Positions 584-48,179 of a stretch of 51,934 nt of DNA are shown here, in pieces; the first letter of the stretch is position 1; each line of letters opens with the position of its first letter. The notes beneath the pieces are model-generated. The model was given only the letters and a program-made list of their open reading frames with translations, made no database searches and was not told the DNA's origin. The stretch spans positions 1 to 51,934 of IMG/VR virus record IMGVR_UViG_3300048590_000302; one strand, given 5' to 3'. Both the position numbers and the translations under genes were made by a program. Source of the stretch: a virus (lineage: Duplodnaviria; Caudoviricetes).

Positions 584-1360
584 ATGGCCCGTAAGAAGAC
601 TGCATCCCCGGAAGCCGCTCCTGCTCAGGACTTGGGCACGGGGGCCGCCGCGCAGCCCCGGTTTCAGATTGAGATCGCCCCGATGGATTCGATCGTCCCG
701 TATGCCCGCAACGCCAAGCTGCACACCGACGAGCAGATATCGGAGATCATGGCGAGCTTTCAGGAGTTTGGCTTTATCAACCCGCTCCTGCTCGACGCCA
801 AGGGGTCGATCGTCGCCGGGCATGGTCGTTTCAAGGCGGCTCAGCGCCTTGGTTATACCGAGGCTCCCGTGATTCGTCTCGGGCATCTTTCCCCGGCGCA
901 GGTCAAGGCGCTTCGCATTGCCGACAACCAGCTCGGTCTTAAGACGGGATGGAATGCCGACCTGCTTTCCCTGGAGCTGACGGAGATGGCCGACGACGGC
1001 TACAACATGGAGCTGCTGGGGTTTGGCGATCAGATTGACGAGTGGCTGACGGCCTCGGCGGATCCGGCGCCATCGGATGATGATGGTTCCGAGGGCGGGG
1101 GCGCCCCGGCAGGTGGGGTTTCGTCGTCGTCGTCGGAATCTTCGGATGATCTTATTCGCGGCGATGTCGAGCGGATTGTGCTGCTCGTGGACAAGAAGGA
1201 CTTTATCAAGGCGGCGCAGGTCATCACCGAGATCAAGGAATCGGAGGGACTGGAGAACGTCACGGAGGTTTTTCTTCACCTGCTGATGGAGTGGAATCGT
1301 CTTCATGGGAGCAAGCGCCCGTCGCCCATTCCCGAGGGAAGCAGCGATGCGGCACATTGA
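584..1360 (+). CDS. ParB/Srx N-terminal domain protein of the type linked to phage DNA modification
   Basis: PYARNAKLH...SFQEFGFINPLL...IVAGHGR...ALRIADN...W motifs; GGAGG RBS before ATG 584. Confidence 0.9.
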   Translation: MARKKTASPEAAPAQDLGTGAAAQPRFQIEIAPMDSIVPYARNAKLHTDEQISEIMASFQEFGFINPLLLDAKGSIVAGHGRFKAAQRLGYTEAPVIRLGHLSPAQVKALRIADNQLGLKTGWNADLLSLELTEMADDGYNMELLGFGDQIDEWLTASADPAPSDDDGSEGGGAPAGGVSSSSSESSDDLIRGDVERIVLLVDKKDFIKAAQVITEIKESEGLENVTEVFLHLLMEWNRLHGSKRPSPIPEGSSDAAH

Positions 1361-2237
1361 GGTCGAGCGTTTGATTGAGGTTCCGAAGTCGCGCATCGGA
1401 GATGCACCGAAGGAATCCGATGCAAGTATTTACGTGCGGGAGCCGACTGTCATTACGCACCTCGGCCAGCCGATTGCGCTCTATGGGGATATTTCCGACT
1501 TCGACTTTCGACAGTTACTATCCTGGTGCAAGCGTGCAAGATTTGGCCTGTTCCGTCGCATGGCGGTCCAGCAAGGCAAGGAATGGTCCCTGCCGAAGTC
1601 CCTCGAACTTTTCTGGGGGTATACCACTGGAAGGCACGTCTATACGGCTCCTCCGGGCGTCACTCGCACGACCAAGGACGATCCCGACATTTACCGGGAG
1701 TCGATCATCCCGCTCTATCATCGACTGCGGCGGGAGTTTGAACTGCACATGCCTGCGCAGTACGTCTCGCAGTTTGAGCGGCTAACTTCTCAGATCCGTC
1801 CTGACTGGCGAATTGATGGCGGCATGTATACGCAGGTCGTATGCAACAAGGGGAATGTATGGAGTTACCATCTCGATCAGTCCAATTTCCGTGATTCCTG
1901 GTCTTCCATGGGAGTGTTCAGCCGTGGGTGTGTTGGCGGCAACACTATCATCCCTGCTCTGGATATGCGATTTGCCATGCAGGGGCAGCGGTTCCTCATC
2001 TTTGAAGGGGCGCGACTCATCCACGGCGTCACACCGCTGACGAAGGTCAAGGCGGATGCCTACCGATATTCATTCGTTTACTATGCGCACGAACAGATGG
2101 CGAAGATGGACACGCTGGAGGTGGAGCTGCGGAAGTTTCGCCGGTCGCTCGACAAGCGCTTCGATGCTGATTATCAGGCGACGCGCGATGCCAACGTGCA
2201 GAAGTTTCGCCGCAAGATGAGGAAGAGCGGACTATGA
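1347..2237 (+). CDS. TET/JBP-family 2OG-Fe(II) dioxygenase
   Basis: HLD (HxD)...GGNTIIP...LIFEG..LIHGVTPL...RYSFVYY double-stranded beta-helix motifs typical of phage TET/JBP. Confidence 0.85.
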   Translation: MRHIEVERLIEVPKSRIGDAPKESDASIYVREPTVITHLGQPIALYGDISDFDFRQLLSWCKRARFGLFRRMAVQQGKEWSLPKSLELFWGYTTGRHVYTAPPGVTRTTKDDPDIYRESIIPLYHRLRREFELHMPAQYVSQFERLTSQIRPDWRIDGGMYTQVVCNKGNVWSYHLDQSNFRDSWSSMGVFSRGCVGGNTIIPALDMRFAMQGQRFLIFEGARLIHGVTPLTKVKADAYRYSFVYYAHEQMAKMDTLEVELRKFRRSLDKRFDADYQATRDANVQKFRRKMRKSGL

Positions 2238-3082
2238 ATCTATACTCGCATCCCCTGGTTGCCATTCCCTCGCATCGTCGCGCGGCGGGCCTGCTGGAGC
2301 ACACGCTGGCCTTTCTTCGGCGGATGGGCTTTCCCCTCTCGCGGGTCTTCGTCTTCGTCTCGGACGCGGATGATCTTAAGGACTACAAGGCGGCGATCCC
2401 GGATGCCGATGGGCTGCACCTCGTTTTTGCAAAAAAAGCCTCCTCGCTCCGCTCGAAGTTCAACTTCATTCGGCGGTACTTCGCGCGGGGGCAGCGCGTG
2501 TTTCTCCTCGAAGACGACGTGATGAGCCTCGTCGAGAAGATGGGCGAGAACTCCGTGCGCGAGTGTGCAGACTTCGAGGCATTTCTTCGCGAGGGCTTCG
2601 ACCTCATGGAGTCGGTTGGTGCCCGCATCTGGGGGGTTTCCCCGCACGCCAACGCCTTCTACATGACGAACAACAATTCGATCAACTTCAAGTTTATCGT
2701 GGCTCAGGCATTTGGATTCGTCGCCGACGACGACGCGCGTCTCGACATCACGCTCGACGGGAAGAGCGACTATGAGCGGACGATTCTCTACTATTTAGCC
2801 GACGGGAGGACGCCGCGGCTGAATCGGTTCGGGGTGAAGCCGTTTGCCAGCTACAAGGGCGAGGGTGGACTTCAGGCGGAGTTTGACCATCGGACGCGGG
2901 TTTATAAGGAGGAGCAGGCCGTCTCCTATCTCACGAGCCGGTATTCGCTCCTGTGCTACCGCAACGAGGGGAAGAAGAGCGTGATGCCGGAGATCAAGTT
3001 TCGTCCGATCAAGGGCAGTCACAAGGCGGTCGTGGCCGCGCAGGCCGCTCGTGACAAGGAACTCGGTTATGGTAAGAACTAA
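2234..3082 (+). CDS. TET-associated glycosyltransferase (TAGT/GREB1-like, GT-A fold)
   Basis: VAIPSHRR N-terminus, FLLEDD (DxD-like), KSDYERT, GGLQ motifs; ATGA overlap with the TET gene. Confidence 0.8.
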   Translation: MNLYSHPLVAIPSHRRAAGLLEHTLAFLRRMGFPLSRVFVFVSDADDLKDYKAAIPDADGLHLVFAKKASSLRSKFNFIRRYFARGQRVFLLEDDVMSLVEKMGENSVRECADFEAFLREGFDLMESVGARIWGVSPHANAFYMTNNNSINFKFIVAQAFGFVADDDARLDITLDGKSDYERTILYYLADGRTPRLNRFGVKPFASYKGEGGLQAEFDHRTRVYKEEQAVSYLTSRYSLLCYRNEGKKSVMPEIKFRPIKGSHKAVVAAQAARDKELGYGKN

Positions 3083-3881
3083 TGACGGGGGGATTTCCGG
3101 CGCATGGTTCGAGCGCGATGGCGGGATGCTGACCAAGCATTGTGCGAATGCCCGCGAGCAGGTGGGGCAGCTCGTTTCCATGCCATCGTATATGACCGCA
3201 CCGACGATCGTCCGCGTGGGGAGCGATCGGTATACGATGCGGTTTATTGATGGCAGTTCACTTCTCGAACTCTGCACGAAGCGTCGTCTTGTGGCAACGT
3301 ATTTCGTGCAGCAACTGCTTACGATCATTGATCAGAATCGTCGTCAGTCGATGCTGGTTGAGATGGAGCACTTTACGCGCAAGGTGAGGTCGATTGCGTT
3401 TCAATCGCCGACCCTTCCGCGCCCGCTTCGCGGGACTCTCTGGCTCTCGTGGCAGTCGATTCTTGACATGATGCCCGATGAGATTCTGCTGCCGATGGGG
3501 TTTGCGCATGGGGATCTTACGCCCGAGAACATCATCATCGACCAGCGGATGACGCCGCACTTTATTGATGCGATTCCCTCGCCTGTCTCCACCATTCTTC
3601 AGGACGTGAGCAAGCTTCGTCAGGAGTTTCTTTATGGATGGTCGTCTGTTCGTCACGGTCTTGATTACGATCGCCGTCACTATCAGGGGATTGTTGACGG
3701 GAGATTTCCCACGACGCGGGAACTTCTCACGCTGGACTTCGTTACGATTGCACGGATAGCCCCTTATGCGGGTGCCAATGAGAGGATTTCCGAATGGATT
3801 ACGCAGCGTCTCTGCCAGATCTTGTCGTGCTATGCGCAGGCACTTCCGACCGCTACGGTGGACGCCCCAAGGCTCTCCTGA
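3069..3881 (+). CDS. APH/choline-kinase-like phosphotransferase
   Basis: HGDLTPENII catalytic loop, HFID, QDVSKLRQE. Confidence 0.8.
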   Translation: MVRTNDGGISGAWFERDGGMLTKHCANAREQVGQLVSMPSYMTAPTIVRVGSDRYTMRFIDGSSLLELCTKRRLVATYFVQQLLTIIDQNRRQSMLVEMEHFTRKVRSIAFQSPTLPRPLRGTLWLSWQSILDMMPDEILLPMGFAHGDLTPENIIIDQRMTPHFIDAIPSPVSTILQDVSKLRQEFLYGWSSVRHGLDYDRRHYQGIVDGRFPTTRELLTLDFVTIARIAPYAGANERISEWITQRLCQILSCYAQALPTATVDAPRLS

Positions 3882-4852
3882 CCCATCCGTCCGGGTTTAT
3901 CATGGCTGTGGAATCGGTGCGTGGGCTTTATGGGTATGGTCGTCTTCATGTGGTGGTTCGCCATCTGTCGCATGTGGATGTGGTTCGTCGTGAATTTCTC
4001 GCTGGTGGTCTTGGCCTGACCGAGGTCAATGTCGTCGTCGTCGGTGAGACGTCCTCTCCTCTTGAGTCGGCACGGCGATTTGTACGGTTGTCTGGTATTC
4101 GCGGTCCTGTGGCCTTCAAGGATTGTGACAATCATTTTCGCATGCGGGTAACTCCTGGTGACTACGCTGCGGTGGTCTACATGCCTGAGCAGGCATCGTT
4201 TGTACGGCGTGACAACAAGAGCTACTGCTCATACTCGGGCTTCTCGCGCAAGCCTTCGGACTGGGCGTGTGCCGGTCTTTACTCGTTCTCGGAGGCTCAG
4301 GATCTTCTGGAGCTGTCGGGGGAGTGGACGGACTTTTGGCAGGTGATGCCTACGACTGCGGTCCATGACGTGGAGCATTATCTTGATTGGGGAACGCGGG
4401 AGGATTGGGTTAGGTTTCGTCGGCGGTATGGGACGGTGTTCGTGGACATCGACGGCGTCCTTGTTCGCAATGGGTCGAGGTCGTTTGCTGACCGGCTTTG
4501 GGGTGATACGGCAGTGATTGCCGGGTCGATCAGGAGGGTCAACGCGCTTTACCATTCCGGTCGGTGGCATGTGGTGCTGGTGACTTCGCGTCCCGAGGAG
4601 GTGCGGCGGGAGACCGTTTCGCAACTGGCGGAATTGTCGTATCATCGTCTAATGATGGGACTTCCAGCCGCCCATCGCATCCTGATTGGCGACGATGATA
4701 GTTTCGGGTCCATGGTCCATGCCGTGCGAATGACGAGGGACGAACCCGACTGGAGACATTTCAACGACATCACCGGAGACTTCCCCGATGACAGATCAAC
4801 CGAAGAAGAAGATGGGCCAGCCGACGAAGTATCGGAAGGCGATTTGCGATGA
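3794..4852 (+). CDS. Sugar-phosphate nucleotidyltransferase fused to a HAD phosphatase
   Basis: N-terminal VVLCAGTSDRY..RPK, FKDCD and DWGT motifs; C-terminal FVDIDGVL, VTSR and IGDD HAD motifs. Confidence 0.85.
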   Translation: MDYAASLPDLVVLCAGTSDRYGGRPKALLTHPSGFIMAVESVRGLYGYGRLHVVVRHLSHVDVVRREFLAGGLGLTEVNVVVVGETSSPLESARRFVRLSGIRGPVAFKDCDNHFRMRVTPGDYAAVVYMPEQASFVRRDNKSYCSYSGFSRKPSDWACAGLYSFSEAQDLLELSGEWTDFWQVMPTTAVHDVEHYLDWGTREDWVRFRRRYGTVFVDIDGVLVRNGSRSFADRLWGDTAVIAGSIRRVNALYHSGRWHVVLVTSRPEEVRRETVSQLAELSYHRLMMGLPAAHRILIGDDDSFGSMVHAVRMTRDEPDWRHFNDITGDFPDDRSTEEEDGPADEVSEGDLR

Positions 4853-5288
4853 GATCGTTGAGTTCATGGCTACGGGGCGTTCGATCTCGGCGTTTGCCGC
4901 TGAGAAGAAGCTGTCGCGCGACATTCTCTATCGGTGGTGTGAGCGCTACCCGGAGTTTGCTGATGCGATGGCAGCAGGCAAGGAGGCGTCCCAGCGCTGG
5001 TGGGAGGCTTTGGCCATGGCTGTGGCGAGCGGTTCGGCTGCCGGACACAAGACGTATAAGAATGCCAACTCGGGGATGGTGATGTTTATGATGAGTCGTC
5101 GCTTCCCCGACTACTACAAGAAGTCCGACGGCGGACCAATCGAAGGCGAGGGCAATGGCACAACGGACGACAACGTCAACGAAGAGGAACTTTCCAACGA
5201 GATCGACCGCCTCATCGCGCTCCGCGATCGACTCCGATCGTCTAAAAAGACTGCTGATGCGCGAGATCGCGGACGAGGCAAGAAGTGA
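4788..5288 (+). CDS. terS: Terminase small subunit
   Basis: GQPTKY..ICDEIVEFMATGRS..HTH..YPEFADA; directly upstream of terL. Confidence 0.85.
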   Translation: MTDQPKKKMGQPTKYRKAICDEIVEFMATGRSISAFAAEKKLSRDILYRWCERYPEFADAMAAGKEASQRWWEALAMAVASGSAAGHKTYKNANSGMVMFMMSRRFPDYYKKSDGGPIEGEGNGTTDDNVNEEELSNEIDRLIALRDRLRSSKKTADARDRGRGKK

Positions 5289-6672
5289 TCTTCTGGCCTT
5301 TATCCAGGTTCTCAATCCCCGCTATCAGGTCAACTGGCATCATGCCGCCATCTGCGATCGTCTGACCCGTCTTGCTTCTGAGGAGGGTCAGCGCCTGATA
5401 ATTTCGGTGCCCCCTCAGTATGGGAAGAGCGAGATCGTGTCGCGGCATTTTCCTGCGTGGATGCTCGGACGAATCCCCGACGGCAAGATCATCCAGGCGT
5501 CGTACTCGGCGGACCTTGCCAACAGCTTTAACCGCGACTGCCAGGGGATCATGGAGTCGGAGGCGTATCGGACGATCTTTCCCCAGACGCAGATCTATCC
5601 CTTCTGCAAGGGGATCAAGCGCACGCAGAACGAGGTCCAGACCTCGCGTCGTGGCTACCTCTTTACCGTGGGGGTTGGCGGCGCCACCACGGGTCGGACG
5701 GCGAATCCTCTTTTTATCATCGACGATCCAATCAAGGACATGGTCCAGGCCCTCAACGAGAAGCACCGCCAGCGCATCATCGAGTGGTATCACGCGGTCG
5801 TCGAGACTCGTCTTTCCCTCGGGGCGAACGTCATCATCATGCACACCCGCTGGCATCAGGGGGATCTTGCCGGATATTTACAGGCCGAGGCTGCCAAGGA
5901 CCCGACCGCCCCTCAGTATGAGGTGATCAACTTTCCTGCGCTTGCCGAGCCGCACTTTCCCCTCCACGCTGACGATCCTCGTCAGGTGGGGGAGGCTCTG
6001 TGGCCTTTATACAAGGGGGATGCTGCTGCTCAGCAGAAGCTTCGCAAGTCGGTGGGGAGCTATATCTATAACGCGCTCTTTCAAGGTCGTCCGCAGTCGG
6101 AAGGCGGCAACATGGTGGATGCCGCGTGGTGGCGCTACTATGAGGCGCTGCCGCCGCTGGATGCGTTTGAGGAGATGCTTATCAGCGTTGACTGCGCGTT
6201 CAAGGATATCAAGGCGTCGGACTTCGTCGTCGTTTCCGTGTGGGGGAGGATTGGTCGCGCGAAGTATCTCGTCGATCAGATTCGTGGCCGCTACAACGTG
6301 CAGAAGACCATGCACTGGATCATGAACACAGCGGATAAATACCCCCGCGCCCACGAGAAGTTGATCGAGGGGAAGGCGAACGGTCCTGCGGTGATTTCCC
6401 TCCTCAAGGGGAAGCTCCACGGCCTTCGCGAGATCGACCCGAAGAGCAGCAAGATTTCCCGCGTGGCGGCTGTCTCGCCCATGATCGAGGACGGCGAGGT
6501 ATGGCTTCCCGACCCGAAGATTGCGACCTTCGACGTTCGCGACTTCGTTGCCGAGTGGTCGGCTTTCCCGATGGGTGTCAACGACGACCAGGTCGATGCC
6601 GGCACACAAGCTCTGGACAGATTGTCGCGGGGCGAGAATAATTACCTACGAAAACTTGTTGGGAGAACCTGA
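5155..6672 (+). CDS. terL: Terminase large subunit (start may be 5257)
   Basis: PPQYGKS Walker A, IIDDP Walker B, TRWH, SVDCA and DDQVDA nuclease motifs. Confidence 0.95.
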   Translation: MAQRTTTSTKRNFPTRSTASSRSAIDSDRLKRLLMREIADEARSDLLAFIQVLNPRYQVNWHHAAICDRLTRLASEEGQRLIISVPPQYGKSEIVSRHFPAWMLGRIPDGKIIQASYSADLANSFNRDCQGIMESEAYRTIFPQTQIYPFCKGIKRTQNEVQTSRRGYLFTVGVGGATTGRTANPLFIIDDPIKDMVQALNEKHRQRIIEWYHAVVETRLSLGANVIIMHTRWHQGDLAGYLQAEAAKDPTAPQYEVINFPALAEPHFPLHADDPRQVGEALWPLYKGDAAAQQKLRKSVGSYIYNALFQGRPQSEGGNMVDAAWWRYYEALPPLDAFEEMLISVDCAFKDIKASDFVVVSVWGRIGRAKYLVDQIRGRYNVQKTMHWIMNTADKYPRAHEKLIEGKANGPAVISLLKGKLHGLREIDPKSSKISRVAAVSPMIEDGEVWLPDPKIATFDVRDFVAEWSAFPMGVNDDQVDAGTQALDRLSRGENNYLRKLVGRT

Positions 6673-31805: not shown

Positions 31806-32255
31806 TCAGGCTTCCGGTGGGCATTCGCTGCCGCTTCCCTCCGGTGGCTTTGGCTGATCCCACCAGGGCTTGAAGCGTTCGATTTCATCGACGGTGGGCA
31901 TCGTCCCGGTGAAGAGAATTGCGCGATCGTCGATCGTGAGAAAGGCCGGTGGCTTCTCCGCAGCGATCGACACGCAGCCCGATATGCCCCACTCTTCGAG
32001 GGCTTTCGCCACGGCCTCACGCCCTTCGTCGGTCGAGGCTCGCGACGTGTGGACGACGATTTGATAGTGTGAGGCGTGGATTCTTATCCATTCGATTGTT
32101 GCCTTAACTGGACCGCCGTCGATGACGGTGGGTCCTTTCCATCGCCGGTAATTGTGAATCACGCCGTCGAAGTCGAGGCATATCAGTTTTCTCATCATTC
32201 CGTTCTCGCGCCTTTTCTTTGGGGCCTTCGTTGTCAGGCCGAGGATTACGGTCAT
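31806..32255 (-). CDS. HAD-family phosphatase/nucleotidase-like protein
   Basis: CLDFDGVIH, HTSR, KPPA..IDDRA. Confidence 0.85.
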   Translation of the reverse strand: MTVILGLTTKAPKKRRENGMMRKLICLDFDGVIHNYRRWKGPTVIDGGPVKATIEWIRIHASHYQIVVHTSRASTDEGREAVAKALEEWGISGCVSIAAEKPPAFLTIDDRAILFTGTMPTVDEIERFKPWWDQPKPPEGSGSECPPEA

Positions 32256-32473
32256 AGCTCCTTCCTTCCGCTGTCGAACTCCTGCTTTGATATCTGCTTC
32301 CACCATGTAATTACGATGTCCTCTGCCGATGGTCGGAAGAATTCGTTTCTGATGTTCTTCAGAATCGCTTCCTTGGCCTTGGCAATGTGAAAGTAGTCCA
32401 CATTCGACGAGAAGCAGCAGTCGCCTATGTCAATTCCTGGAGCCTTGTAGTTGACGAACCAGTAGGTTTCCAT
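32252..32473 (-). CDS. Hypothetical protein
   Basis: Tightly packed in the leftward operon. Confidence 0.65.
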   Translation of the reverse strand: METYWFVNYKAPGIDIGDCCFSSNVDYFHIAKAKEAILKNIRNEFFRPSAEDIVITWWKQISKQEFDSGRKEL

Positions 32474-33761: not shown

Positions 33762-34661
33762 TTATGTGGCCGGCTGCTTCTGAGGTGTTTCAGCCGTCAT
33801 ATCTATCGTGTCATCGGCAAGTATGTCTTCGAGTTCATTTCCGCTGGAGGCTCCCGACCGTGCCCCCTGCTGTTGCCCCATCGGCAGCTTGTCGAGGAGG
33901 CCGGCGTCTTTCGCGACCTGGGCCATGTTCGTTCCTGGTGCTTCGTCCTCGCGATCGTGCATGGTGAGGTCGTTGATTTCCGGGCTCTTCGGCAGCGACT
34001 TGTAGAGACGACGGACGACGGTCTTTCTCGCCATCTGGTCCCAGTGGTCGGTCCATGGAATCGACTTCTTGCCCTTGCGCATCTTCTGCTCGTTTCGATC
34101 GACCTGGTCCTTCGTCATGACCTCAATGATGGTGCCGCCGCCCTTGATCTTGGCCATGGCGTAGACGAGTTTGATGTTCGTCTCGTTCATGTCGGTGTTC
34201 TCGTAGTTTTTCTTGTGGCGGAAGACGATTCCATCGTGGGTCACTTCATGCTGAAAGTCGTCGTTGTGATAGACGACGTCCGACATGATGTACTCGACCT
34301 TTCCCGAGCGCATGGCGATGTCGATCATGCCTTGATAGCCGATTTGCATGGTGACTTCGTTGCCGTATGGAATCAGATACGCCTGGCCGAGTCCTGCGCC
34401 TGGTTCCAGGCCGAGCTGGGCGGCTTTCAGGATGGCCCCGAAGAAGGAGGCTGGATTGTTTTCCGCTGTTCTCGCGAGGGTCGGGTTCATCCGCAGCTCG
34501 GTCAGGGCAATGCGGGCCATGCGATCGGGGTTGATGTGTTTCGGCAGGGCAGCGCCGATCTGGTCCTTGTACTTGATAAGCATCTGGTCGGGACGCATCG
34601 GGGCAACGGCCTGAGTGTTTGCTGGACGGCTGCCGCCGCTAAATGTTGGTGCCTGGGCCAT
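33762..34661 (-). CDS. recT: RecT-family single-strand annealing recombinase
   Basis: LPKH..DRMARIA, AAQLGLEP..LGQAYLIPY, IGYQG, PW..H.DQMARKTV.RRL.K.LP. Confidence 0.95.
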   Translation of the reverse strand: MAQAPTFSGGSRPANTQAVAPMRPDQMLIKYKDQIGAALPKHINPDRMARIALTELRMNPTLARTAENNPASFFGAILKAAQLGLEPGAGLGQAYLIPYGNEVTMQIGYQGMIDIAMRSGKVEYIMSDVVYHNDDFQHEVTHDGIVFRHKKNYENTDMNETNIKLVYAMAKIKGGGTIIEVMTKDQVDRNEQKMRKGKKSIPWTDHWDQMARKTVVRRLYKSLPKSPEINDLTMHDREDEAPGTNMAQVAKDAGLLDKLPMGQQQGARSGASSGNELEDILADDTIDMTAETPQKQPAT

Positions 34662-35123: not shown

Positions 35124-35945
35124 TTAAACGACGAGCCCGAGATCTTCGAGCCGTCGCAATTCCTCCTGAAGCTCTCTTTCCTCGTGTGGCGTAATCCTGA
35201 TCTCGTCAACCTCGAACGAATAGCCTGGCCATTCCTTTGATGCCATGCAGTCGCGATAGAGGTCGATGGCCTTTCGACAGTGGACGTACCACGCATAGTC
35301 AATCAGCGTCTGATCGGGCGACATGATCTTTGCGCAGTAGGGTTCCTCCATCTCGATGACGAGGAAGTAGACCTTTCTTCGGATACCGTCGTGGATTTCC
35401 GCCACGCGCTGATACCAAGCGGCCTGGATGTGGTAGCCGTAGAGGCGGAATTTCTTTTTGAAGTTGTCGGCCTTCTTAATGTACTCGCCGAACTCGGAGG
35501 AGGTTTTCACGTCGAGGATCATGCGCGGGTTTATGAAGTCGTAGAGGGCCTTTCCCGGAACGCCATCGACCTCGACATAGATGTCTTTCTCGCGCTCACC
35601 GGGAAGGCCGAGGAACTTGCAGATTTTGTTGTTCTGAAGAACCTTCTGCGCGACCTTGCAGGCAATATCGTACTCTTCCTGAGTGAGGATGAATTTCTTC
35701 GGGTGAAGCAGGCGGAACTTGTCGGCTGACTTCGTCGTCAGGGATTTTCCTGGGAAGACCTCGACCTCGTCGCGGATGACTTCGGGAGTCAGCAGAATAT
35801 AGTGGACCATCTCGCCAATGCGGAGGGACTTGGAGCCCTTGTGCTCCTTCTTTCTCCAGGTGATATAGTGCTCGGGGCTCTGCATGAGTTGTTTGATGCC
35901 TGAGTTGCTGAGCGCTTCTCGGGAATAGTATTCGGGCTTAAGCAT
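35124..35945 (-). CDS. RecE/ExoVIII-like PD-(D/E)XK exonuclease (DUF3799-like)
   Basis: LSNSGIK...SP, G..VH..LL.P, KALYD...DVKT, YGYHIQAAWY; upstream of recT. Confidence 0.88.
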   Translation of the reverse strand: MLKPEYYSREALSNSGIKQLMQSPEHYITWRKKEHKGSKSLRIGEMVHYILLTPEVIRDEVEVFPGKSLTTKSADKFRLLHPKKFILTQEEYDIACKVAQKVLQNNKICKFLGLPGEREKDIYVEVDGVPGKALYDFINPRMILDVKTSSEFGEYIKKADNFKKKFRLYGYHIQAAWYQRVAEIHDGIRRKVYFLVIEMEEPYCAKIMSPDQTLIDYAWYVHCRKAIDLYRDCMASKEWPGYSFEVDEIRITPHEERELQEELRRLEDLGLVV

Positions 35946-41612: not shown

Positions 41613-42047
41613 TTATAGCCACACTGCAATGTAACTCCTAATTGCGCTGCGCAGTGGTTCGATTCTTTTGTCGTTCATGATGAAGCCGCTCCACTCGATC
41701 TTGTCTGAAATCATTATAAGCTCCACGACGTGTCCTCCATCGTCAATCACCTCGTCTTTTGCCTTTTTACCGTCGATGCCAAGAGTGAAGCTGACGAATG
41801 GGAAGTACATCGAATCGAGGATTCCGCAGCTTTTGTTGATGATTCTGACGTGAAGTGCTTCCGCTGAGCCCGATGATCCTGCCCAATCCGGCTCGATCAC
41901 AGCGATGATTCCAACCGGGGTTTTATTGCTGCCGATCATGACTCTGTCGCCAATGATCGTTGTCGCCGGCATACCTAGCAGGCTTTCTCCGATCAGACTC
42001 TTCATGAACTCTTCGTGCTGGACATGCGGTGGTTGGTTCTGTTTCAT
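41613..42047 (-). CDS. Hypothetical protein, first gene of the leftward operon
   Basis: AAGGA RBS; 144-aa ORF. Confidence 0.65.
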   Translation of the reverse strand: MKQNQPPHVQHEEFMKSLIGESLLGMPATTIIGDRVMIGSNKTPVGIIAVIEPDWAGSSGSAEALHVRIINKSCGILDSMYFPFVSFTLGIDGKKAKDEVIDDGGHVVELIMISDKIEWSGFIMNDKRIEPLRSAIRSYIAVWL

Positions 42048-42329
42048 GTGGGGATCCTTCCTCTCGTTTCAAGGTGTGTAACATGGTAAGCCTGTTAGGC
42101 TGTGTCACTATGACGCAGATTGGCATTACTCTAACTATAGACCGCAATAGTATGGCATTATCAGGAGCTTGTCCACTGGAACCAGCGCGGCGTTGCCGGG
42201 TTATGCCGTATTTCTCCAACAATTGCACTGGCTCAGCAGTGTGGTCTATGGCATGATCCCAACCTCACAGAGTAATGTCATAGTCTAGTGTCAGAAGACA
42301 TGGCGCACACTACCTATAGAGGACCAATC

Positions 42330-42752
42330 ATGCTTACAGACAATCCATCATCCGCAACCCTCCCGATTGAGACAGTCACACTTGAGGATGGAACGCAGGT
42401 TTCACTTCAGGATCTTCTGCGCATCGTCAAGGAACAGCAGAAGGCTCTTCAGCAGCAGAAGATGCCGAAGAAGGAAAAGATCAGACGACGACGATCCCGA
42501 GAGACGAAGGACAAGGAGGTGAAGTTTATCTGTCGCATTCCCGAGAAGCTGCTCGTCTGGCTCAAGGAAGAGAGCGAGCACTACGAAGTAACGCAGCAGG
42601 CGTACATCGAGGCGGTGTTTCGCGCTCGACGGGCATCGGCTCCGCGACGCTCGCGATTCGATGTCATCCGTAAGAAGCCACGCGATCTCGTCGAAAGCTA
42701 TCTGACCGACAACGTCACCGACGAGGATCAATCGAAGCTATTGAGAGCGTGA
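42330..42752 (+). CDS. Ribbon-helix-helix-like DNA-binding protein
   Basis: VKFICRIPEKLLVWLKEES...TQQAYIEAV strand-helix-helix pattern; basic arm. Confidence 0.6.
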   Translation: MLTDNPSSATLPIETVTLEDGTQVSLQDLLRIVKEQQKALQQQKMPKKEKIRRRRSRETKDKEVKFICRIPEKLLVWLKEESEHYEVTQQAYIEAVFRARRASAPRRSRFDVIRKKPRDLVESYLTDNVTDEDQSKLLRA

Positions 42753-42797
42753 GACGGGCAGTGGTTTGCCGGAATTAACAACACATGGAAGTGGTTT

Positions 42798-43910
42798 ATG
42801 GAGCTACACGATGGCCAGGTTGCAATTGATTGGACGATCATCGAGCGGTTTTGGTTCACGGTCTACAGTGACCCTGTCTATGGATTTAGCCCGAATCAGG
42901 CCCCGTCTCTTCAGTTGTTGTGGGTACTCTTCCATACATGGCCTAGAGTCAATCGAACGCAGGTACTTATTTCCGCAACTCGTTATGACTCCAATGAGGA
43001 GCTTGCCAGTCTTTTTTCCGGCGATGGTGGGCATGAGGTTTTAAAGAAGGATATGGTCACAGTGACCAATGCACTTCAAGCTCTTTATAAGCGAAATATG
43101 CTACGTCATGTAAAACTTGGGAATCGTCGAGCCTTGGGATTTACTGCTGAATACATCGCTCACATCAAAAAGCGATGCGCCAGTATCTCTACCGCTCAGA
43201 GGCATAATGCCGCCAATATCTCTACCGTTCAGCGGCATAATGCAGCCAACTTTACGCCCTTTCAGCGGCACAATGCAGTCAATAACTCTACCGGCCTGAG
43301 CGGTAGAGTTCCTGACACAGCCCAGAACGATGCAGCAAAAACCGCAATGATTCCGCAGGGGGAAGTTGCTGGCGATCATATCTATAGAGGAAGAAGAATA
43401 ATAGAAGACGAAGACAGACATAGAATACCTATTACTAATCTCGAAGAATTGAACTCCGAGAACCCCGCAAAGTCGTCGTCGTCTGTTAAGTCGCAGCAAG
43501 GGAAGACGCTTGACCAGCCTCAACCCATCGCGGTACGACCCCAACCTGTAGGACCCCTCTCAGGATCGCAGAATCGCCCGCTGTCGCTCCGAGCACAGTC
43601 GAAGCGAGCTTATCTTAGGATTGCACCAGACAAACATTCTGGAGCCAATGAGGGCCTTCCAGGACCATACGTCGATGCGGTGCCTCAACCGTGGCGGGAT
43701 GGCATCTTCTCGACCGTCACGGAGATCGTCGAACAGCTTGGGAGGGGGATGGAGCTTTTAACCTGGCTTGATGAACTCCTCAGCAAGGAGTCAATCAAGA
43801 CCATCTGCCAGGGGATTGGAGGTGAAGCGCAGGACTGGGAGATGTTTCTCAACGATCACTTACGAGCGCAATTCGGACTCGAACCGCTTAAAAAGAAAAT
43901 GACCCCTTAA
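42798..43910 (+). CDS. Replication initiator protein (lambda O-like organisation)
   Basis: Upstream of DnaB; N-terminal winged-helix-like region; internal DNA repeats. Confidence 0.7.
   Translation: MELHDGQVAIDWTIIERFWFTVYSDPVYGFSPNQAPSLQLLWVLFHTWPRVNRTQVLISATRYDSNEELASLFSGDGGHEVLKKDMVTVTNALQALYKRNMLRHVKLGNRRALGFTAEYIAHIKKRCASISTAQRHNAANISTVQRHNAANFTPFQRHNAVNNSTGLSGRVPDTAQNDAAKTAMIPQGEVAGDHIYRGRRIIEDEDRHRIPITNLEELNSENPAKSSSSVKSQQGKTLDQPQPIAVRPQPVGPLSGSQNRPLSLRAQSKRAYLRIAPDKHSGANEGLPGPYVDAVPQPWRDGIFSTVTEIVEQLGRGMELLTWLDELLSKESIKTICQGIGGEAQDWEMFLNDHLRAQFGLEPLKKKMTP
43185..43292 (+). repeat. 33-bp tandem repeats (about 3.3 copies), probable iterons/ori
   Basis: ATCTCTACCG(C/T)TCAG(A/C)GGCATAATGC.GCCAA units at 43185, 43218, 43251 and 43284; A-rich tract at 43380-43440. 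Confidence 0.8.
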
Positions 43911-43937
43911 ACCATTAACAGCTTACCGAGGTCACCT

Positions 43938-45416
43938 TTGAAAACTTATTCTGACTCGATGTTTAACCCGAACTGGGCCTATCGTGCAATAGACGGAGCC
44001 AGGAATTTTAATCCTGAACATGAAATTCTTATTCCCGAAGCGGCGCTTCTCGCGTGCATCGTCACCGATTGGGACACCGACCAGGACCAGCGAGGCTGGG
44101 CGGCACTCAATCTAAAGCTCGAAGATAAGTATTTTCAGACGCCCGAAGGACGCTTCTTCTTCCGACTTCTGGTGCAACTGCGCGACAGGAAAGTACCAAT
44201 TCAGGATAATTCCAGCTTATTCATAGCAGAAGCCGAACGTGTGATTGGGAAAAGGGTTGACACGTTGATACCTGCGGCGTTACCACTCTTCACCGTGATG
44301 GCCACAAATCCAAACTATTGGGCCAAGTTGGTTGTCGAAGAATACCTACGCAAGGAGCTTGCAAGAGCAATCCTGGCAGCGCAGGAGGACAGTGAAATGG
44401 GAGCGAAGATCGTGAAGTTACAGGAAGCGATCGAGAGCCTTAAGGCTGCCGACGTCTTCCGCGACAGATCGTTTGTGTCATTGCAGCAAGCCATTGGCGA
44501 ATTCGTCGAGATCCTCGAACACCGCACGCAAAAAGCCGCGCATCAATCCCCATACATCCCCTCAACATTCCCCACTCTCGACGCTCGCGTGAAGTTTGGC
44601 CGTGGACACTTCATCGTACTCGGAGGACGCTCAGGCATGGGCAAGTCCACCGTCGCTGTAAATCTCATGCACCGAATGATCGTCACCGGGCAGAAGGTGG
44701 GCATGTTCTCACTGGAAATGACACGTCCCGAGATCGTCCAGATGCTCATCGCCATCGAAGCAGGCGTAAACTACGAGAGCATGACGGACGCCTCCAAGCT
44801 CAACGACGACGACTTCGACAAAATCTCGGAAGCTTCACGAAGTCTTTACAATACAGACAAGAAGCTGGAGATCTCCGACCGAGGACGCATGACCATCGAC
44901 GACATTCGCGAAGAGATGGAACACATGCGAAGAAAGATGATGGGCCTCGACGTCGTCTTCATCGACCACATGCACATCATCAACACCGACAACAAAAAAC
45001 TTGGCTCCATGCGTGAGAAGCTGATCTATGTAACAGCCGAACTCAAGGCCATGGCCAAGGACTTCGATTGCGCAGTCATCTGCCTCGCGCAAATGAACCG
45101 CGACGCCGACAAGCGCGACGACAAGCGGCCCGTCGTAGCCGATCTAAAGGAATCCGGCTCCATCGAACAGGATGCCGACACAATCCTATTCGTCTATCGA
45201 GACAACTATTATCTGAATCCAGGAGAGCGACCAAAACCAAAACTCTCGATCCTTCGCACCGCCTACGACGACGACAACAGCGATCATCAGGCGCAAGCGG
45301 GAACGAGCGAACTCATATGCAGAAAGAATCGTCACGGTACGTGGCAGAACTTCACCGTCAACTTCGAGGTCAACCCGCGAACCAAGCGCATGAGCGAATC
45401 ACGGGAACAACCATAA
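43938..45416 (+). CDS. dnaB: DnaB-like replicative helicase
   Basis: GGRSGMGKS, FSLEM, FIDH, LAQMNR, DLKESGSIEQDAD, KNRHG. Confidence 0.96.
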   Translation: MKTYSDSMFNPNWAYRAIDGARNFNPEHEILIPEAALLACIVTDWDTDQDQRGWAALNLKLEDKYFQTPEGRFFFRLLVQLRDRKVPIQDNSSLFIAEAERVIGKRVDTLIPAALPLFTVMATNPNYWAKLVVEEYLRKELARAILAAQEDSEMGAKIVKLQEAIESLKAADVFRDRSFVSLQQAIGEFVEILEHRTQKAAHQSPYIPSTFPTLDARVKFGRGHFIVLGGRSGMGKSTVAVNLMHRMIVTGQKVGMFSLEMTRPEIVQMLIAIEAGVNYESMTDASKLNDDDFDKISEASRSLYNTDKKLEISDRGRMTIDDIREEMEHMRRKMMGLDVVFIDHMHIINTDNKKLGSMREKLIYVTAELKAMAKDFDCAVICLAQMNRDADKRDDKRPVVADLKESGSIEQDADTILFVYRDNYYLNPGERPKPKLSILRTAYDDDNSDHQAQAGTSELICRKNRHGTWQNFTVNFEVNPRTKRMSESREQP

Positions 45417-45553
45417 AGGGGAGTGCGAGTCTTGAGTGGGAGAGATATCATCAGGGCCTTGTAAAAGGGCGGGAGCCCCGAGATCGACCATGATCCCTGG
45501 GATCGCGAGGCTCCCTTTTATCTCTCGAACGCAGTAACCATAGGAGAGTAATC

Positions 45554-46036
45554 ATGATTCGTTCCGCAATCCTTGCCGCTTCCCTCTTCACAGCAGGAGC
45601 GGCCACGGCACAACACAAGAGCTTCGAGGTATGCACCGAGCAAAGCCTCTGCGCTCTCCGCGTCCTCGACAGTGACACCAACGAGGAAGTCTGGCTTGTC
45701 ACCGAACAGGCAAAGGACCTCTCCCTCATCTGGGGAGGAACCTATTGGATCGTAGATCGGCAAACCTACGACGAAGTCAACGAGCTGATTGAAGAGCGCA
45801 TGGTCCTGCCAGCGAAAAACCCGACGACAGACCTCACACTCGAACGGGCCAAGGGAGGATCAACACCACCACCGAAAACCCCGGCACAATCCGGCAGCGG
45901 TGGGCCACTCGTCAGCGGCTCCGTATCAGTGGGAAATATCACCATCGGCGGCAGCGGAGGCGACGCCTCGTGTCGCGACTGTCACACGGGATCACACAGG
46001 GAAATCCATAAGAAGGTGATGGACAAGGGCTACTGA
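45554..46036 (+). CDS. Secreted protein with a C-terminal CxxCH motif
   Basis: Signal peptide MIRSAILAASLFTAGAATA; Pro/Gly/Ser linker; CRDCH. Confidence 0.75.
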   Translation: MIRSAILAASLFTAGAATAQHKSFEVCTEQSLCALRVLDSDTNEEVWLVTEQAKDLSLIWGGTYWIVDRQTYDEVNELIEERMVLPAKNPTTDLTLERAKGGSTPPPKTPAQSGSGGPLVSGSVSVGNITIGGSGGDASCRDCHTGSHREIHKKVMDKGY

Positions 46037-46075
46037 AGAAGAAAAAACGCGGGGAAGCATCATCGCCACCCCGCG
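46036..46075 (-). terminator. Hairpin with A-tract (minus-strand or bidirectional terminator)
   Basis: CGCGGGG/CCCCGCG stem preceded by AAGAAGAAAAAA. Confidence 0.45.
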
Positions 46076-46238
46076 CCACGAACTAAAAAGGAACTCATGG
46101 CCGTAACGCCCCGCCCGCAAGAGGTCTGTGGGAACGGACGGGGAGCACCCATCTCTCGGAAAAAAGCTGCCATCTCCATGACGGTCCCTTCAACCCAGAA
46201 TAACATACCCTCACCTCATCAATGGAAATGGCCCGCCA

Positions 46239-46466
46239 ATGGAAGAGATGGTACTGCTGGAGCACAGGGACGGACGAAGAGAGAAGCACCTCATAGCCAT
46301 GGAGGACGCCCCCACAGAACGCATCCTGACCATAAGGATCCAGCGAACTGTAAAGGACCGCTACGTGCAGCTAACCTTCACATACACGGGACGACGACAC
46401 ATCGACAGAAGGATATTCAAGGAAACAGACGAGAGCGAGGTCAAGGCGGAGGCGTTCGATTGGTGA
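46239..46466 (+). CDS. Hypothetical protein
   Basis: 75-aa ORF with plausible composition. Confidence 0.5.
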   Translation: MEEMVLLEHRDGRREKHLIAMEDAPTERILTIRIQRTVKDRYVQLTFTYTGRRHIDRRIFKETDESEVKAEAFDW

Positions 46467-46513
46467 GCCAAGGATATAGGGCAGTAATTCGAGCGCTGAG
46501 AAGGACAGAGGAA

Positions 46514-46735
46514 ATGAGCTATCTTCCAGTAATGTCGGCGGCGGTGAACTTCTTCATAAGAGGGCAGGTCAAGCAGTTTGCCCTTCGCAGGATGTACCAC
46601 GTTCCAAGAGTTGGCGATTCGGTAATATTTCAGACGATCCCCTACAAGGTGCTCTATGTGGATTGGTGCCTTGACGAAGATGCAACGGATTATGGTGTGA
46701 GGGTAAACGTCGAGATTGAGAAGAACGTGACATGA
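46514..46735 (+). CDS. Hypothetical protein
   Basis: GAGGA RBS; VPRVGDSV motif. Confidence 0.65.
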   Translation: MSYLPVMSAAVNFFIRGQVKQFALRRMYHVPRVGDSVIFQTIPYKVLYVDWCLDEDATDYGVRVNVEIEKNVT

Positions 46736-46938
46736 ACCAGGACGAGCTGAATGCACTCACTCTGGAAGAGAGGAAAGCCCTCCGCACGCTACTCGATTCC
46801 CATGAGAGGATGATGGCCACCATCAACATAAGATGGGCGACAGACCACGAGACTGCAATCGAGAGGATAAATGAGAATATCAGGAGGGATTGGAATGAGG
46901 GGAGGCAGCTTTCTCGTTTGCGCGGGATCCAATTTTGA
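46732..46938 (+). CDS. Hypothetical coiled-coil protein
   Basis: ATGA coupling. Confidence 0.6.
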   Translation: MNQDELNALTLEERKALRTLLDSHERMMATINIRWATDHETAIERINENIRRDWNEGRQLSRLRGIQF

Positions 46939-47730
46939 AAATCAATTTCCAGAAAAATTGGCTGGCCGCCCCGGGGCACCCGCGAGAGAAAAGCCGGAAA
47001 TCCACCGGAATCTCCGGGGAAAAAATCGCGAGCTTTTCACGTGGAACCGGGAGCAAAACCAGGGAATTTCCATCTAACCATAACCTTCTTCTCACAAAAA
47101 AGACTGACGACGACGACCCGACTTCAAGACAAATTCCAACCACTTCACAGCACACTTCACACATCGTCCCCCACCACTCCGCCACCACCACCACGCGAAA
47201 GCTTTGTTGGTTTCCATATATTTGAAAGCTTTGTCTGGCCAAAATCCCAAAATTCCCTTTCGATTTCGACCAGGAAAGACTGTCAAAGTTTACGACACCC
47301 GGCTGTCGATTTCTTTGACACTGTCGAGTCTTTGGACGTCAAACCTTTGGACACCGCAAGAAGTGTACCCTTTAGACAGAGCGATTCCGTGCCAAATTCA
47401 AAGACAAGGACCATGCCAGCAGACAAAGGCAGGAACCGTGCCAGCCGCGCCCCATGCAGGATTCAAGCCATTTGACACCGCGTACAGGGATTTGACAGGA
47501 CCGTCAACGCCTTTGACAGCATGGGGTTGACCGATCGGCTCTTATAATACAAGGAACCCCAACCCCGCGCCTGTCAAGCCTTTGGCCGATTCAACTGTCC
47601 ACGACGACGACAGACATTCCCTTGCAATCCCTGGCGCTTAAGCCAATCCAGCCGCGCGGTAAGCAGAATCCGCAGGATCCTTGGACACCCCCCACTTTCA
47701 TAACTATCGAATATTACTATGCCAACATGA

Positions 47731-47746
47731 CGGCACGCGCCCTGCA
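47731..47746 (+). promoter_or_regulatory. Sigma54-like (-24/-12) promoter
   Basis: CGGCACGCGCCCTGCA has GG-N10-GC spacing (consensus TGGCACG-N4-TTGCW); AT-rich tract upstream. Confidence 0.5.
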
Positions 47747-47810
47747 TTATATATAACGTCAGCCGATGGTCGGTTGGCAGAATCAGAACCCGATCTTAAG
47801 GAACTTAATC

Positions 47811-48179
47811 ATGAGTAACTCAACTGAATCCAAGAACTCGACCAAGTCTCCAGCCATCCTTGATAAGCCAATCGACGGAGCCGATAAGCTTACCGCCGAG
47901 CAGCTTTTAGCGAAGATGTTTGAGGTCGTGCCCGCAAGCTCAAATGCACGCCTGCCAGAACCCTGGAGTCAAGCCGATCGCGATAAATTGGTCGGCCTGG
48001 TCAAGGCAGCCCTGGCCGCTGGCCGCACAACTCGCGACGCTTGCACTTTCATTTTTGAAGCAGGGGTCTTTCCAGGACGCGGTAAGGCTGCAATCTTCGA
48101 GATTTGGCAGGACTACACCCGACCTGAACGCGCGGCCAAGGCAGCGGCCAAGGCCAATAAGCAGGAAGTTTCCAAGTAA
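47811..48179 (+). CDS. Myb/SANT-like (RsfA-type) HTH protein (tentative)
   Basis: WSQADRDKLV..V...G.T..A......FPGR...AI...W pattern; AAGGA RBS. Confidence 0.55.
   Translation: MSNSTESKNSTKSPAILDKPIDGADKLTAEQLLAKMFEVVPASSNARLPEPWSQADRDKLVGLVKAALAAGRTTRDACTFIFEAGVFPGRGKAAIFEIWQDYTRPERAAKAAAKANKQEVSK

Follow-up and report, generated by a model that had tools for sequence, protein, structure and literature searches.

The left end of a tailed-phage genome (Duplodnaviria; Caudoviricetes), held in IMG/VR as record IMGVR_UViG_3300048590_000302 and analysed here over positions 1 to 51,934 (the window), carries five overlapping genes that probably encode a pathway for base-J-like modification of thymine. 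In the reading that we favour, a thymine dioxygenase activated by a ParB-like protein, a JGT-like glycosyltransferase (GT) of the GT-A type and a nucleoside-diphosphate sugar (NDP-sugar) supplied by the phage itself would together give glycosylated 5-hydroxymethyluracil (5hmU). We regard this as probable on the combined strength of sequence profiles, structure models and analogy with characterised systems. The five genes are as follows.

584..1360, + strand: ParB-like protein (reading frame open from TTG 512; ATG 584 is the likely start)
1347..2237, + strand: TET/JBP-family 5-methylpyrimidine dioxygenase (5mYOX), 296 aa (reading frame open from 1305)
2234..3082, + strand: TAGT, a GT of GT-A type, 282 aa (PF20691, phrog_25200)
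3069..3881, + strand: small-molecule kinase of the APH/eukaryotic-like-kinase (ELK) fold, 270 aa (alternative start GTG 3051)
3794..4852, + strand: fusion of an NDP-sugar pyrophosphorylase (residues ~1-210) and a capless HAD phosphatase (~213-300), 352 aa

The protein encoded by the second of these genes matches the Pfam Tet_JBP family, PF12851 (E=6e-8; 32.5 bits as a protein and 34 bits in a six-frame search, the gathering score being 34.9), and phrog_6059 (E=2e-23); PF12851 is also listed in the precomputed database annotation of an identical protein. Residues H175, D177, H226 and R240 are invariant both in a 20-sequence alignment and among the eight closest sequences, so that the HxD...H iron triad and the arginine that binds 2-oxoglutarate are intact. 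The dioxygenase domain is the only one detected in the 296 residues, and a GAGGGA motif lies 5' of the start codon, ATG 1347. A library of 1.84 billion yielded 797 representative homologues at E<=1e-3 and only 10 at E<=1e-30, the closest being 57% and 49% identical to the window enzyme. We predict that the protein is a thymine dioxygenase yielding 5hmU on DNA. The label 'queuine tRNA-ribosyltransferase', found in GenBank and PHROG, was rejected because both the profile and the catalytic residues are those of TET/JBP. Many actinophage TET/JBP homologues (Julie1, KayaCho, Hosp, Nigel, MementoMori) and PHROG 6059 itself bear this label, and the error appears to have been propagated.

The GT gene begins 4 nt before the end of the dioxygenase gene. 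Its product matches PF20691 (TAGT) well above the cut-off (E=5.5e-12, 46.5 bits; cut-off 27.5) as well as phrog_25200 (E=3e-25), and D94 and D95, which form a DxD-type motif, and E181 are invariant in 11 TAGT sequences. The enzyme is predicted on this basis to transfer a sugar to the 5-hydroxymethyl group. An initial annotation of this DNA had placed a TET/JBP enzyme and a glycosyltransferase at 1347-3082; both assignments hold, given PF12851 with its HxD...H...R set and PF20691 above cut-off, although that two-gene view was incomplete, having overlooked the ParB-like gene, the APH-fold kinase and the nucleotidyltransferase (NTase)-HAD fusion.

We found no enzyme in the record that would write 5-methylcytosine (5mC). 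Six-frame searches of the whole record with hidden Markov models at E<=10 gave no match to C5-methyltransferases (PF00145; TIGR00675, dcm), none to PF01555 (N6/N4), PF02086 (Dam-type) or PF02384 (N6_Mtase), and none to the thymidylate synthase family PF00303. Pfam scans, which covered 36 chosen open reading frames (ORFs) of the window, gave neither a methyltransferase nor a DNA polymerase. Absence here means absence within reach of these models, which a more divergent methyltransferase could escape; the six-frame pipeline is judged sensitive enough, because the weak TET domain, serving as a positive control, was recovered at 34 bits. As no thymidylate synthase homologue, methyltransferase or DNA polymerase was found, the modification must act on DNA made from normal deoxynucleoside triphosphates. 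Replication is presumably carried out by a host polymerase, which fits post-replicative modification. A nucleotide-level route to 5hmU or 5-hydroxymethylcytosine (5hmC) through a thymidylate-synthase paralogue was rejected, PF00303 having no match.

These searches agree with the statement of the initial annotation that the genome has no C5-methyltransferase, and because none was found, thymine rather than 5mC is the likely substrate. Between the two options that the annotation had offered, oxidation of thymine and use of host-written 5mC, the first is favoured by this result, by the ParB-like gene at the start of the dioxygenase gene and by the published finding that, of the phage 5mYOX pathways mined, just 6% include a C5-methyltransferase (PMC13229309). 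The accompanying premise, that characterised phage TETs act on 5mC only, is out of date: TET89 produced 5hmU already in 2021 (Burke et al., PMC8256090), and subclasses of phage thymine dioxygenases were described in 2025-26. A 2023 preprint had also reported that 5hmU is the probable product of many 5mYOXs linked to GTs, and that phage GT-A DNA glycosyltransferases are structurally closest to Trypanosoma cruzi JGT (10.1101/2023.12.21.572611).

The experimental demonstration of phage thymine dioxygenases, in two subclasses, is that of O'Toole et al. (PNAS 2026, PMC13229309; preprint 10.1101/2025.08.14.668559). In that study, one subclass needs a cognate ParB-like activator, which consists of a nucleotide-binding domain and a C-terminal domain and has no DNA-binding domain; the ParB-dependent enzymes have a specific extended C-terminus; and two of them in clade C1, 5mYOX176 and 5mYOX185, convert thymine to ~25-35% 5hmU in E. 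coli only when the cognate ParB is present. The commonest neighbours of 5mYOX genes there are GTs (31%), ParBs (27%) and terminases (19%), with APH and HAD also tabulated, and ParB linkage is patchy within clade C1 too.

The ParB-like protein of the window has the architecture of such an activator. Its gene overlaps the dioxygenase gene by 14 nt (stop at 1360, start at 1347), and it matches phrog_15396 and phrog_620 (E ~2e-46), TIGR00180 (E=5e-7) and, just under the cut-off of 26.3 bits, PF02195 (E=9e-6, 26.1 bits). An N-terminal domain of the ParB/Srx nucleotide-binding type is followed by a linker and a conserved C-terminal domain; both domains are conserved in an alignment with eight ParB-like ORFs lying upstream of TET homologues, and Pfam reported no helix-turn-helix DNA-binding family in the protein. 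Among related IMG/VR loci, ParB is detectable by tblastn in 27 of 80, and in 10 of the 16 that were inspected a ParB-like ORF abuts or overlaps the TET gene. By analogy with the characterised pairs, the protein is predicted to be the activator of the dioxygenase. A prediction of the TET-ParB complex scored 0.02, the mark being 0.32, and was not used as evidence either way.

The remaining two genes would supply the sugar donor. The kinase matches PF01636 below cut-off (E=4e-4), and its alignment shows an invariant G-x-S-G loop, an HGD...N motif and the metal-binding D167. Its AlphaFold model (pLDDT 83.8) retrieved maltokinase 4u94 as the top Foldseek match in the PDB (E=2.8e-6), along with APH(3')-Ia, APH(4)-Ia, glucosamine kinase and choline kinase LicA, and with this fold it is predicted to be a sugar-phosphate 1-kinase. 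The Pfam matches of the fusion protein are weak (NTP_transf_3, HAD_PNKP, HAD_SAK_2), and searches of PDB sequences with the single proteins gave nothing useful. A profile of the fusion, by contrast with the single proteins, matched the Vibrio cholerae NDP-sugar pyrophosphorylase 4evw over positions 4-210 (E=2.4e-12) and the Pnkp1 phosphatase over positions 235-312 (E=6.5e-5), with 1xpj at E=0.14. The AlphaFold model (pLDDT 74.5) likewise had 4evw as its top Foldseek match (E=4e-9), followed by RmlA, UGPase and inositol-phosphate cytidylyltransferase (IPCT). The start at 3794 is confirmed by an N-terminal AGxSxR...K motif that is conserved in homologues, among which HAD motif I (DxDG) is invariant. 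Thus all three catalytic domains, kinase, NTase and HAD, are present with intact motifs.

The two genes travel together far beyond this phage, and the pair is apparently an uncharacterised two-gene module. In all 12 viral loci the NTase/HAD homologue has an APH-like ORF upstream of it, as it does in 41 of the 49 cellular loci that are full-length, drawn from bacteria and archaea of many phyla; TET, TAGT and ParB were found near the NTase-HAD gene in none of 59 cellular loci scanned. In Marinobacter the pair sits within a lipopolysaccharide (LPS)-core cluster with HldE, a GT9 heptosyltransferase, HAD, WavE and O-antigen ligase; in Helicobacter bilis it accompanies an epimerase and a GmhA-type SIS_2 protein; and across 62 loci SIS_2 is a neighbour in 7 and WavE in 6. 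Among 11 viral records searched, a TET is present in one and a thymidylate-synthase homologue in one. A tblastn search of 50,697 GenBank phage records with the kinase and the fusion (E<=1e-3) matched a single uncultured marine virus. In the ESM Atlas the fusion recurs in many clusters, most of them viral, which we take as a lead only.

Several further observations on the module were made. It spans our cellular loci L096-L144, which include Nanoarchaeia and Woesearchaeota metagenome-assembled genomes (MAGs), and our viral loci L083-L094, which include contigs of 158 and 170 kb and a GVMAG. The kinase and NTase-HAD genes are often separated by a short NAD-dependent epimerase-like gene (L084, L085, L123), and in the LPS-core clusters of gammaproteobacteria WavE comes after the pair. 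The WavE, O-antigen ligase and GT4 of L118, from a binned Rhodopirellula MAG, compared with L142, match those of Marinobacter vinifirmus FB1 at 99-100% identity; L118 is probably bin contamination or misbinning.

Taken together, the genes suggest the following route. The dioxygenase would hydroxylate thymine's C5-methyl group in phage DNA after replication, giving 5hmU, and on double-stranded DNA it would most likely require the overlapping ParB-like protein as an activator. The kinase would convert a host sugar-omega-phosphate to the 1,omega-bisphosphate, the HAD domain would take this to the sugar-1-phosphate, and the pyrophosphorylase domain would form the NDP-sugar, whose sugar TAGT would then move onto 5hmU to give a base-J-like 5-(glycosyloxymethyl)uracil. 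The logic of this proposed donor route is also that of the GDP- and ADP-heptose pathways of cells (GmhA, kinase, GmhB, nucleotidyltransferase). The sugar precursor would come from the host, as the phage has no SIS isomerase, and the sugar is probably not plain host glucose, because the phage encodes its own donor-making genes. The description 'base-J-like' in the initial annotation thus keeps its value for the logic, hydroxylation of thymine and then glycosylation, and loses it for the sugar, which is probably not taken from host UDP-glucose.

Two characterised phage systems follow a similar plan. For contig 53, the making of heptosyl- and diheptosyl-5mC in E. coli required a cytidylyltransferase and a GT as well as a HAD-APH fusion (10.1101/2023.12.21.572611), and in RB69/DLP3/HY126-type phages AfhE (NTase and kinase) and AfhF (HAD) convert arabinose 5-phosphate through Araf-1,5-bisphosphate to UDP-arabinofuranose (PMC13326640). 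The cellular contexts of the pair and contig 53 make heptose the best single guess for the donor sugar, a guess more probably wrong than right, with a pentose or another sugar possible. It is a doubtful proposal that the phage makes an undescribed 5-(heptosyl- or other rare-sugar-oxymethyl)uracil by way of a ParB-activated thymine dioxygenase, a JGT-like GT-A and a donor module of kinase and pyrophosphorylase-HAD. The modification may serve in protection from host nucleases, as a packaging-linked mark, or both.

Comparison with known systems sets out what is shared. Kinetoplastid base J (JBP1/JBP2 and JGT) is likewise made by a TET/JBP dioxygenase that converts thymine to 5hmU, followed by O-glycosylation by a GT-A enzyme, as predicted here. 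At 296 aa the window enzyme, unlike JBP1 and JBP2, is too short to hold a J-DNA-binding or SWI2/SNF2 domain as well, and its partner is of ParB type; given the dedicated NDP-sugar module, glucose is probably not the sugar, and the likely role is protection or marking of phage DNA rather than control of eukaryotic transcription. The locus resembles those of 5mYOX176/ParB176 and 5mYOX185, as far as these are described, in its upstream ParB-like gene without a DNA-binding domain, a dioxygenase of ~300 aa, the lack of a detected C5-methyltransferase and an IMG/VR source, and its terminase, GT, APH and HAD are among the co-occurring domains listed in PMC13229309. It differs from 5mYOX176 and 5mYOX185 in joining ParB with a GT-A and a donor-supply pair.

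Phage clusters of C5-methyltransferase, TET and GT (PMC8256090, and contig 53), to judge from their published descriptions, share with the window post-replicative oxidation followed by glycosylation, and contig 53 also encodes an APH-type kinase, a HAD phosphatase and a nucleotidyltransferase beside its GT. The window has no detected C5-methyltransferase, and its likely substrate is thymine rather than 5mC; compared by description, contig 53 has a HAD-APH fusion, a separate NTase and a GT-B, whereas the window has a kinase alone, an NTase-HAD fusion and a GT-A (TAGT). With AfhE/AfhF the window shares, by prediction, the combination of kinase, HAD and pyrophosphorylase by which a sugar phosphate becomes the NDP-sugar used to glycosylate DNA, and the HAD proteins of both match PDB 1xpj, the window HAD only at the E-value given above. 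The RB69/DLP3/HY126 phages, as described, differ in using a pre-replicative cytosine derivative, their own arabinose-5-phosphate isomerase and an NTase-kinase fusion; no SIS isomerase was found in the window. The order of ParB-like, TET-like and glycosyltransferase genes also occurs in cultured actinophages (Arthrobacter phage Altadena; Mycobacterium cluster B/Acadianvirus, e.g. Serendipitous), where the cassettes lie by the terminase or the genome end, and in Mycobacterium cluster B at the genome end beside the terminase. Altadena has the order ParB-like, 'Tet-like J-binding protein', glycosyltransferase, deacetylase. These cassettes are only 26-35% identical to that of the window, and in place of the APH and NTase-HAD pair Altadena has its deacetylase and Serendipitous an 'adenylate kinase' P-loop protein.

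Gene order is conserved in the few close relatives that could be found. The single TET protein, run against viral contigs, gave no relatives; the three closest sequences, run against metagenome contigs, gave one contig, of 1.4 kb. This contig (L095), the closest of all, keeps the order TET (60% identity), TAGT (64% identity) and APH. Locus L093 has TET-TAGT-APH-NTase-AAA, its TET scoring 91.9 bits on PF12851, and the ORF upstream of that TET is barely ParB-like (E=0.19). L083 has TAGT-APH-NTase/HAD, and the two ORFs upstream of its TAGT showed no homology to the TET profile.

A maximum-likelihood tree, made quickly from 107 rows and including no characterised enzyme, was used to place the dioxygenase. 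The window enzyme falls on a long branch within a clade of eight rows (SH-aLRT 100), itself part of a wider clade of 25 rows in which the five members with known context (L009, L025, L026, L031, L081) have no C5-methyltransferase match. PF00145 was sought in 50 of the 80 related loci, picked for longer contigs, over the whole record of each; seven of the 50 records matched (E<=1e-3), as did four of the 17 with a completeness of at least 90%, and the relatives that bear a C5-methyltransferase occupy other clades of the tree than the window enzyme. Three IMG/VR loci (L003, L014, L061) have a ParB-like gene overlapping TET together with a C5-methyltransferase match elsewhere in the record, and two of them (L014, L061) have TAGT as well; ParB linkage and C5-methyltransferase presence are thus not mutually exclusive.

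Several results weigh against the favoured reading. The dioxygenase scores slightly below the Pfam gathering threshold for PF12851, and its relatives lie far above it. The clade of eight rows gives it only seven close relatives, none with known upstream context, and among the five records of its nearest context-known relatives PF02195 was found in one, as a weak match directly upstream of TET. Because ParB is patchy among these relatives, dependence on ParB is likely and not assured. In the window enzyme and its seven nearest relatives 50-61 residues follow the RYSxVYY motif, and 10 of 12 other aligned sequences stop ~20-30 residues earlier; among 82 TETs with context, however, the median tail is 53 residues in ParB-linked and 60 in other proteins. 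As tail length does not separate the two groups, it was dropped as a marker of ParB dependence. The donor pair appears not to be detectably homologous to AfhE/AfhF, provided that genomes of the RB69/DLP3/HY126 type are in the GenBank collection searched, as expected, and the search of the window for a SIS isomerase was negative, as was that for an epimerase. Finally, the published phage thymine dioxygenases also oxidise 5mC in vitro (PMC13229309), so that, by analogy, host-written 5mC is a possible minor substrate.

The cassette opens a tightly packed string of + strand genes at the left end of the window, from the ParB-like gene to the terminase, in which successive genes overlap and which continues as follows.

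4788-5288, + strand: small terminase subunit (TerS), directly 3' of the cassette
5155-6672, + strand: large terminase subunit (TerL), with tblastn matches to phage terminases
6675-8222, + strand: portal, assigned by position and size alone, no family search having been made

The terminase region matches PF20901 (Sf6_terminase, E=2e-7) and phrog_309 (E=3e-20). Some overlaps in the string are long. That of the kinase and NTase-HAD genes, 88 nt (3794-3881), is backed by conserved N-terminal residues of the NTase; that of NTase-HAD and TerS is 65 nt (4788-4852); and that of TerS and TerL, 134 nt (5155-5288), is taken from the longest ORFs, so that the TerL start may be further downstream.

The record, at 51,934 bp, is a whole IMG/VR virus with a CheckV completeness of 100% and ends classed as 'linear', and no direct repeat of at least 40 bp was found anywhere in it. 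An identical copy of the dioxygenase protein is on record in six contigs, the longest of 52,019 bp. The 36 scanned ORFs yielded DnaB, RecT, a DUF3799 exonuclease, DUF3310 and a second HAD-like ORF. RecT and DUF3799 (PDDEXK exonuclease), a recombination pair, and the DnaB-type helicase lie at 33762-34661 (- strand), 35124-35945 (- strand) and 43938-45416 (+ strand). The second HAD-like ORF (31806-32306, - strand, 166 aa; PF18143 HAD_SAK_2, E=2e-4, below cut-off) stands alone in the leftward early region, distant from the cassette. AT skew is ~+0.2 at 42001-48000 and negative elsewhere, coinciding with a switch from leftward to rightward genes at ~42.2 kb; this region may be a divergent early promoter or an origin. 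When 20 kb of the structural region were compared with GenBank phages by Megablast, nothing matched, and tblastn with TerL and the major capsid protein gave matches of at most 40% identity in phages of many host phyla, so that the host is not inferable from them.

Three other explanations were considered. The one that survives best, though we think it rather unlikely, keeps the chemistry of the favoured reading and holds that the product is a sparse, sequence-specific mark, linked to ParB and terminase, for packaging or regulation, and not a global protection against restriction. It is consistent with the position of the cassette directly upstream of the terminase in one gene string. It also fits the terminases found in 19% of mined 5mYOX pathways, the preference of characterised enzymes for YTY and NTR sites with at most ~35% of thymine modified, and the epigenetic-like role raised by the authors of that work (PMC13229309). 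Adjacency to the terminase may, however, merely reflect the layout of a late or early operon. Most known phage hypermodifications guard against nucleases.

We give distinctly less credence to the view that the dioxygenase mainly oxidises 5mC written by the host, through a Dcm-like or restriction-modification methylase, leaving glycosylated 5hmC at a few sites. Phage TETs of clades A and B are 5mC dioxygenases (PMC8256090), the activity of thymine dioxygenases on 5mC in vitro points the same way (PMC13229309), the phage matches do not give a host whose methylases could be considered, and C5-methyltransferase matches do occur in the 7 of 50 relatives' records. Yet the characterised phage TETs of the 5mC type adjoin a C5-methyltransferase of their own (PMC8256090; PMC13229309), and the six-frame search found none in this phage; the relatives that have one belong to different clades in the quick tree, and ParB linkage fits the subclass of thymine dioxygenases. 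Methylation by the host of fast-replicating phage DNA would, moreover, probably leave a sparse and incomplete modification.

It is very improbable that the kinase and NTase-HAD proteins act on a group borne by the DNA, phosphorylating 5hmU or phosphorylating or nucleotidylating the attached sugar, with a more complex, non-glycosidic or phospho-sugar modification as the product. The ELK-fold kinases WaaP and KdkA phosphorylate sugars attached to LPS and offer a precedent for such a role; the sequence-profile matches of the kinase are Bud32/RIO-type kinases; and in the PDB the profile of the HAD domain best matches the phosphatase domain of Pnkp1, from a family that dephosphorylates nucleic-acid ends. 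Kinases that activate 5hmU in DNA are known, though of the P-loop type (PMC8256090); one such, 5-HMUDK, phosphorylates 5hmU in other pathways of thymidine hypermodification. What speaks for the donor route instead is that the pair is common in bacteria and archaea (the 41 of 49 loci), in LPS and polysaccharide clusters and with TET, TAGT and ParB in none of the 59 cellular loci, that the N-terminal domain is a bona fide homologue of NDP-sugar pyrophosphorylases (4evw), and that the same three activities make a donor in two phage systems (10.1101/2023.12.21.572611; PMC13326640).

The principle of phage thymine dioxygenases that act without a methyltransferase is already published, and the locus in the window is a further example of it; as the published surveys mined IMG/VR, this contig may already be within their supplementary datasets. 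Less usual are the combination of ParB with a GT-A and the donor module, for which no match was found in a cultured-phage record among the 50,697 GenBank records. The value of the locus lies in the example and in the handle that it gives on the donor module, not in the discovery of the principle. Its five-gene overlapping candidate pathway lies in a whole phage genome and comprises both a predicted activator, ParB, and a donor supply of its own, which would make the locus a convenient test case for whether phage GT-A enzymes glycosylate 5hmU, how ParB switches the dioxygenase on and which sugar the widespread pair of APH-kinase and NTase-HAD provides. If the reading is true, assigning a product to the donor module here would also annotate the module in the envelope-glycan clusters of bacteria and archaea in which the same pair is found.

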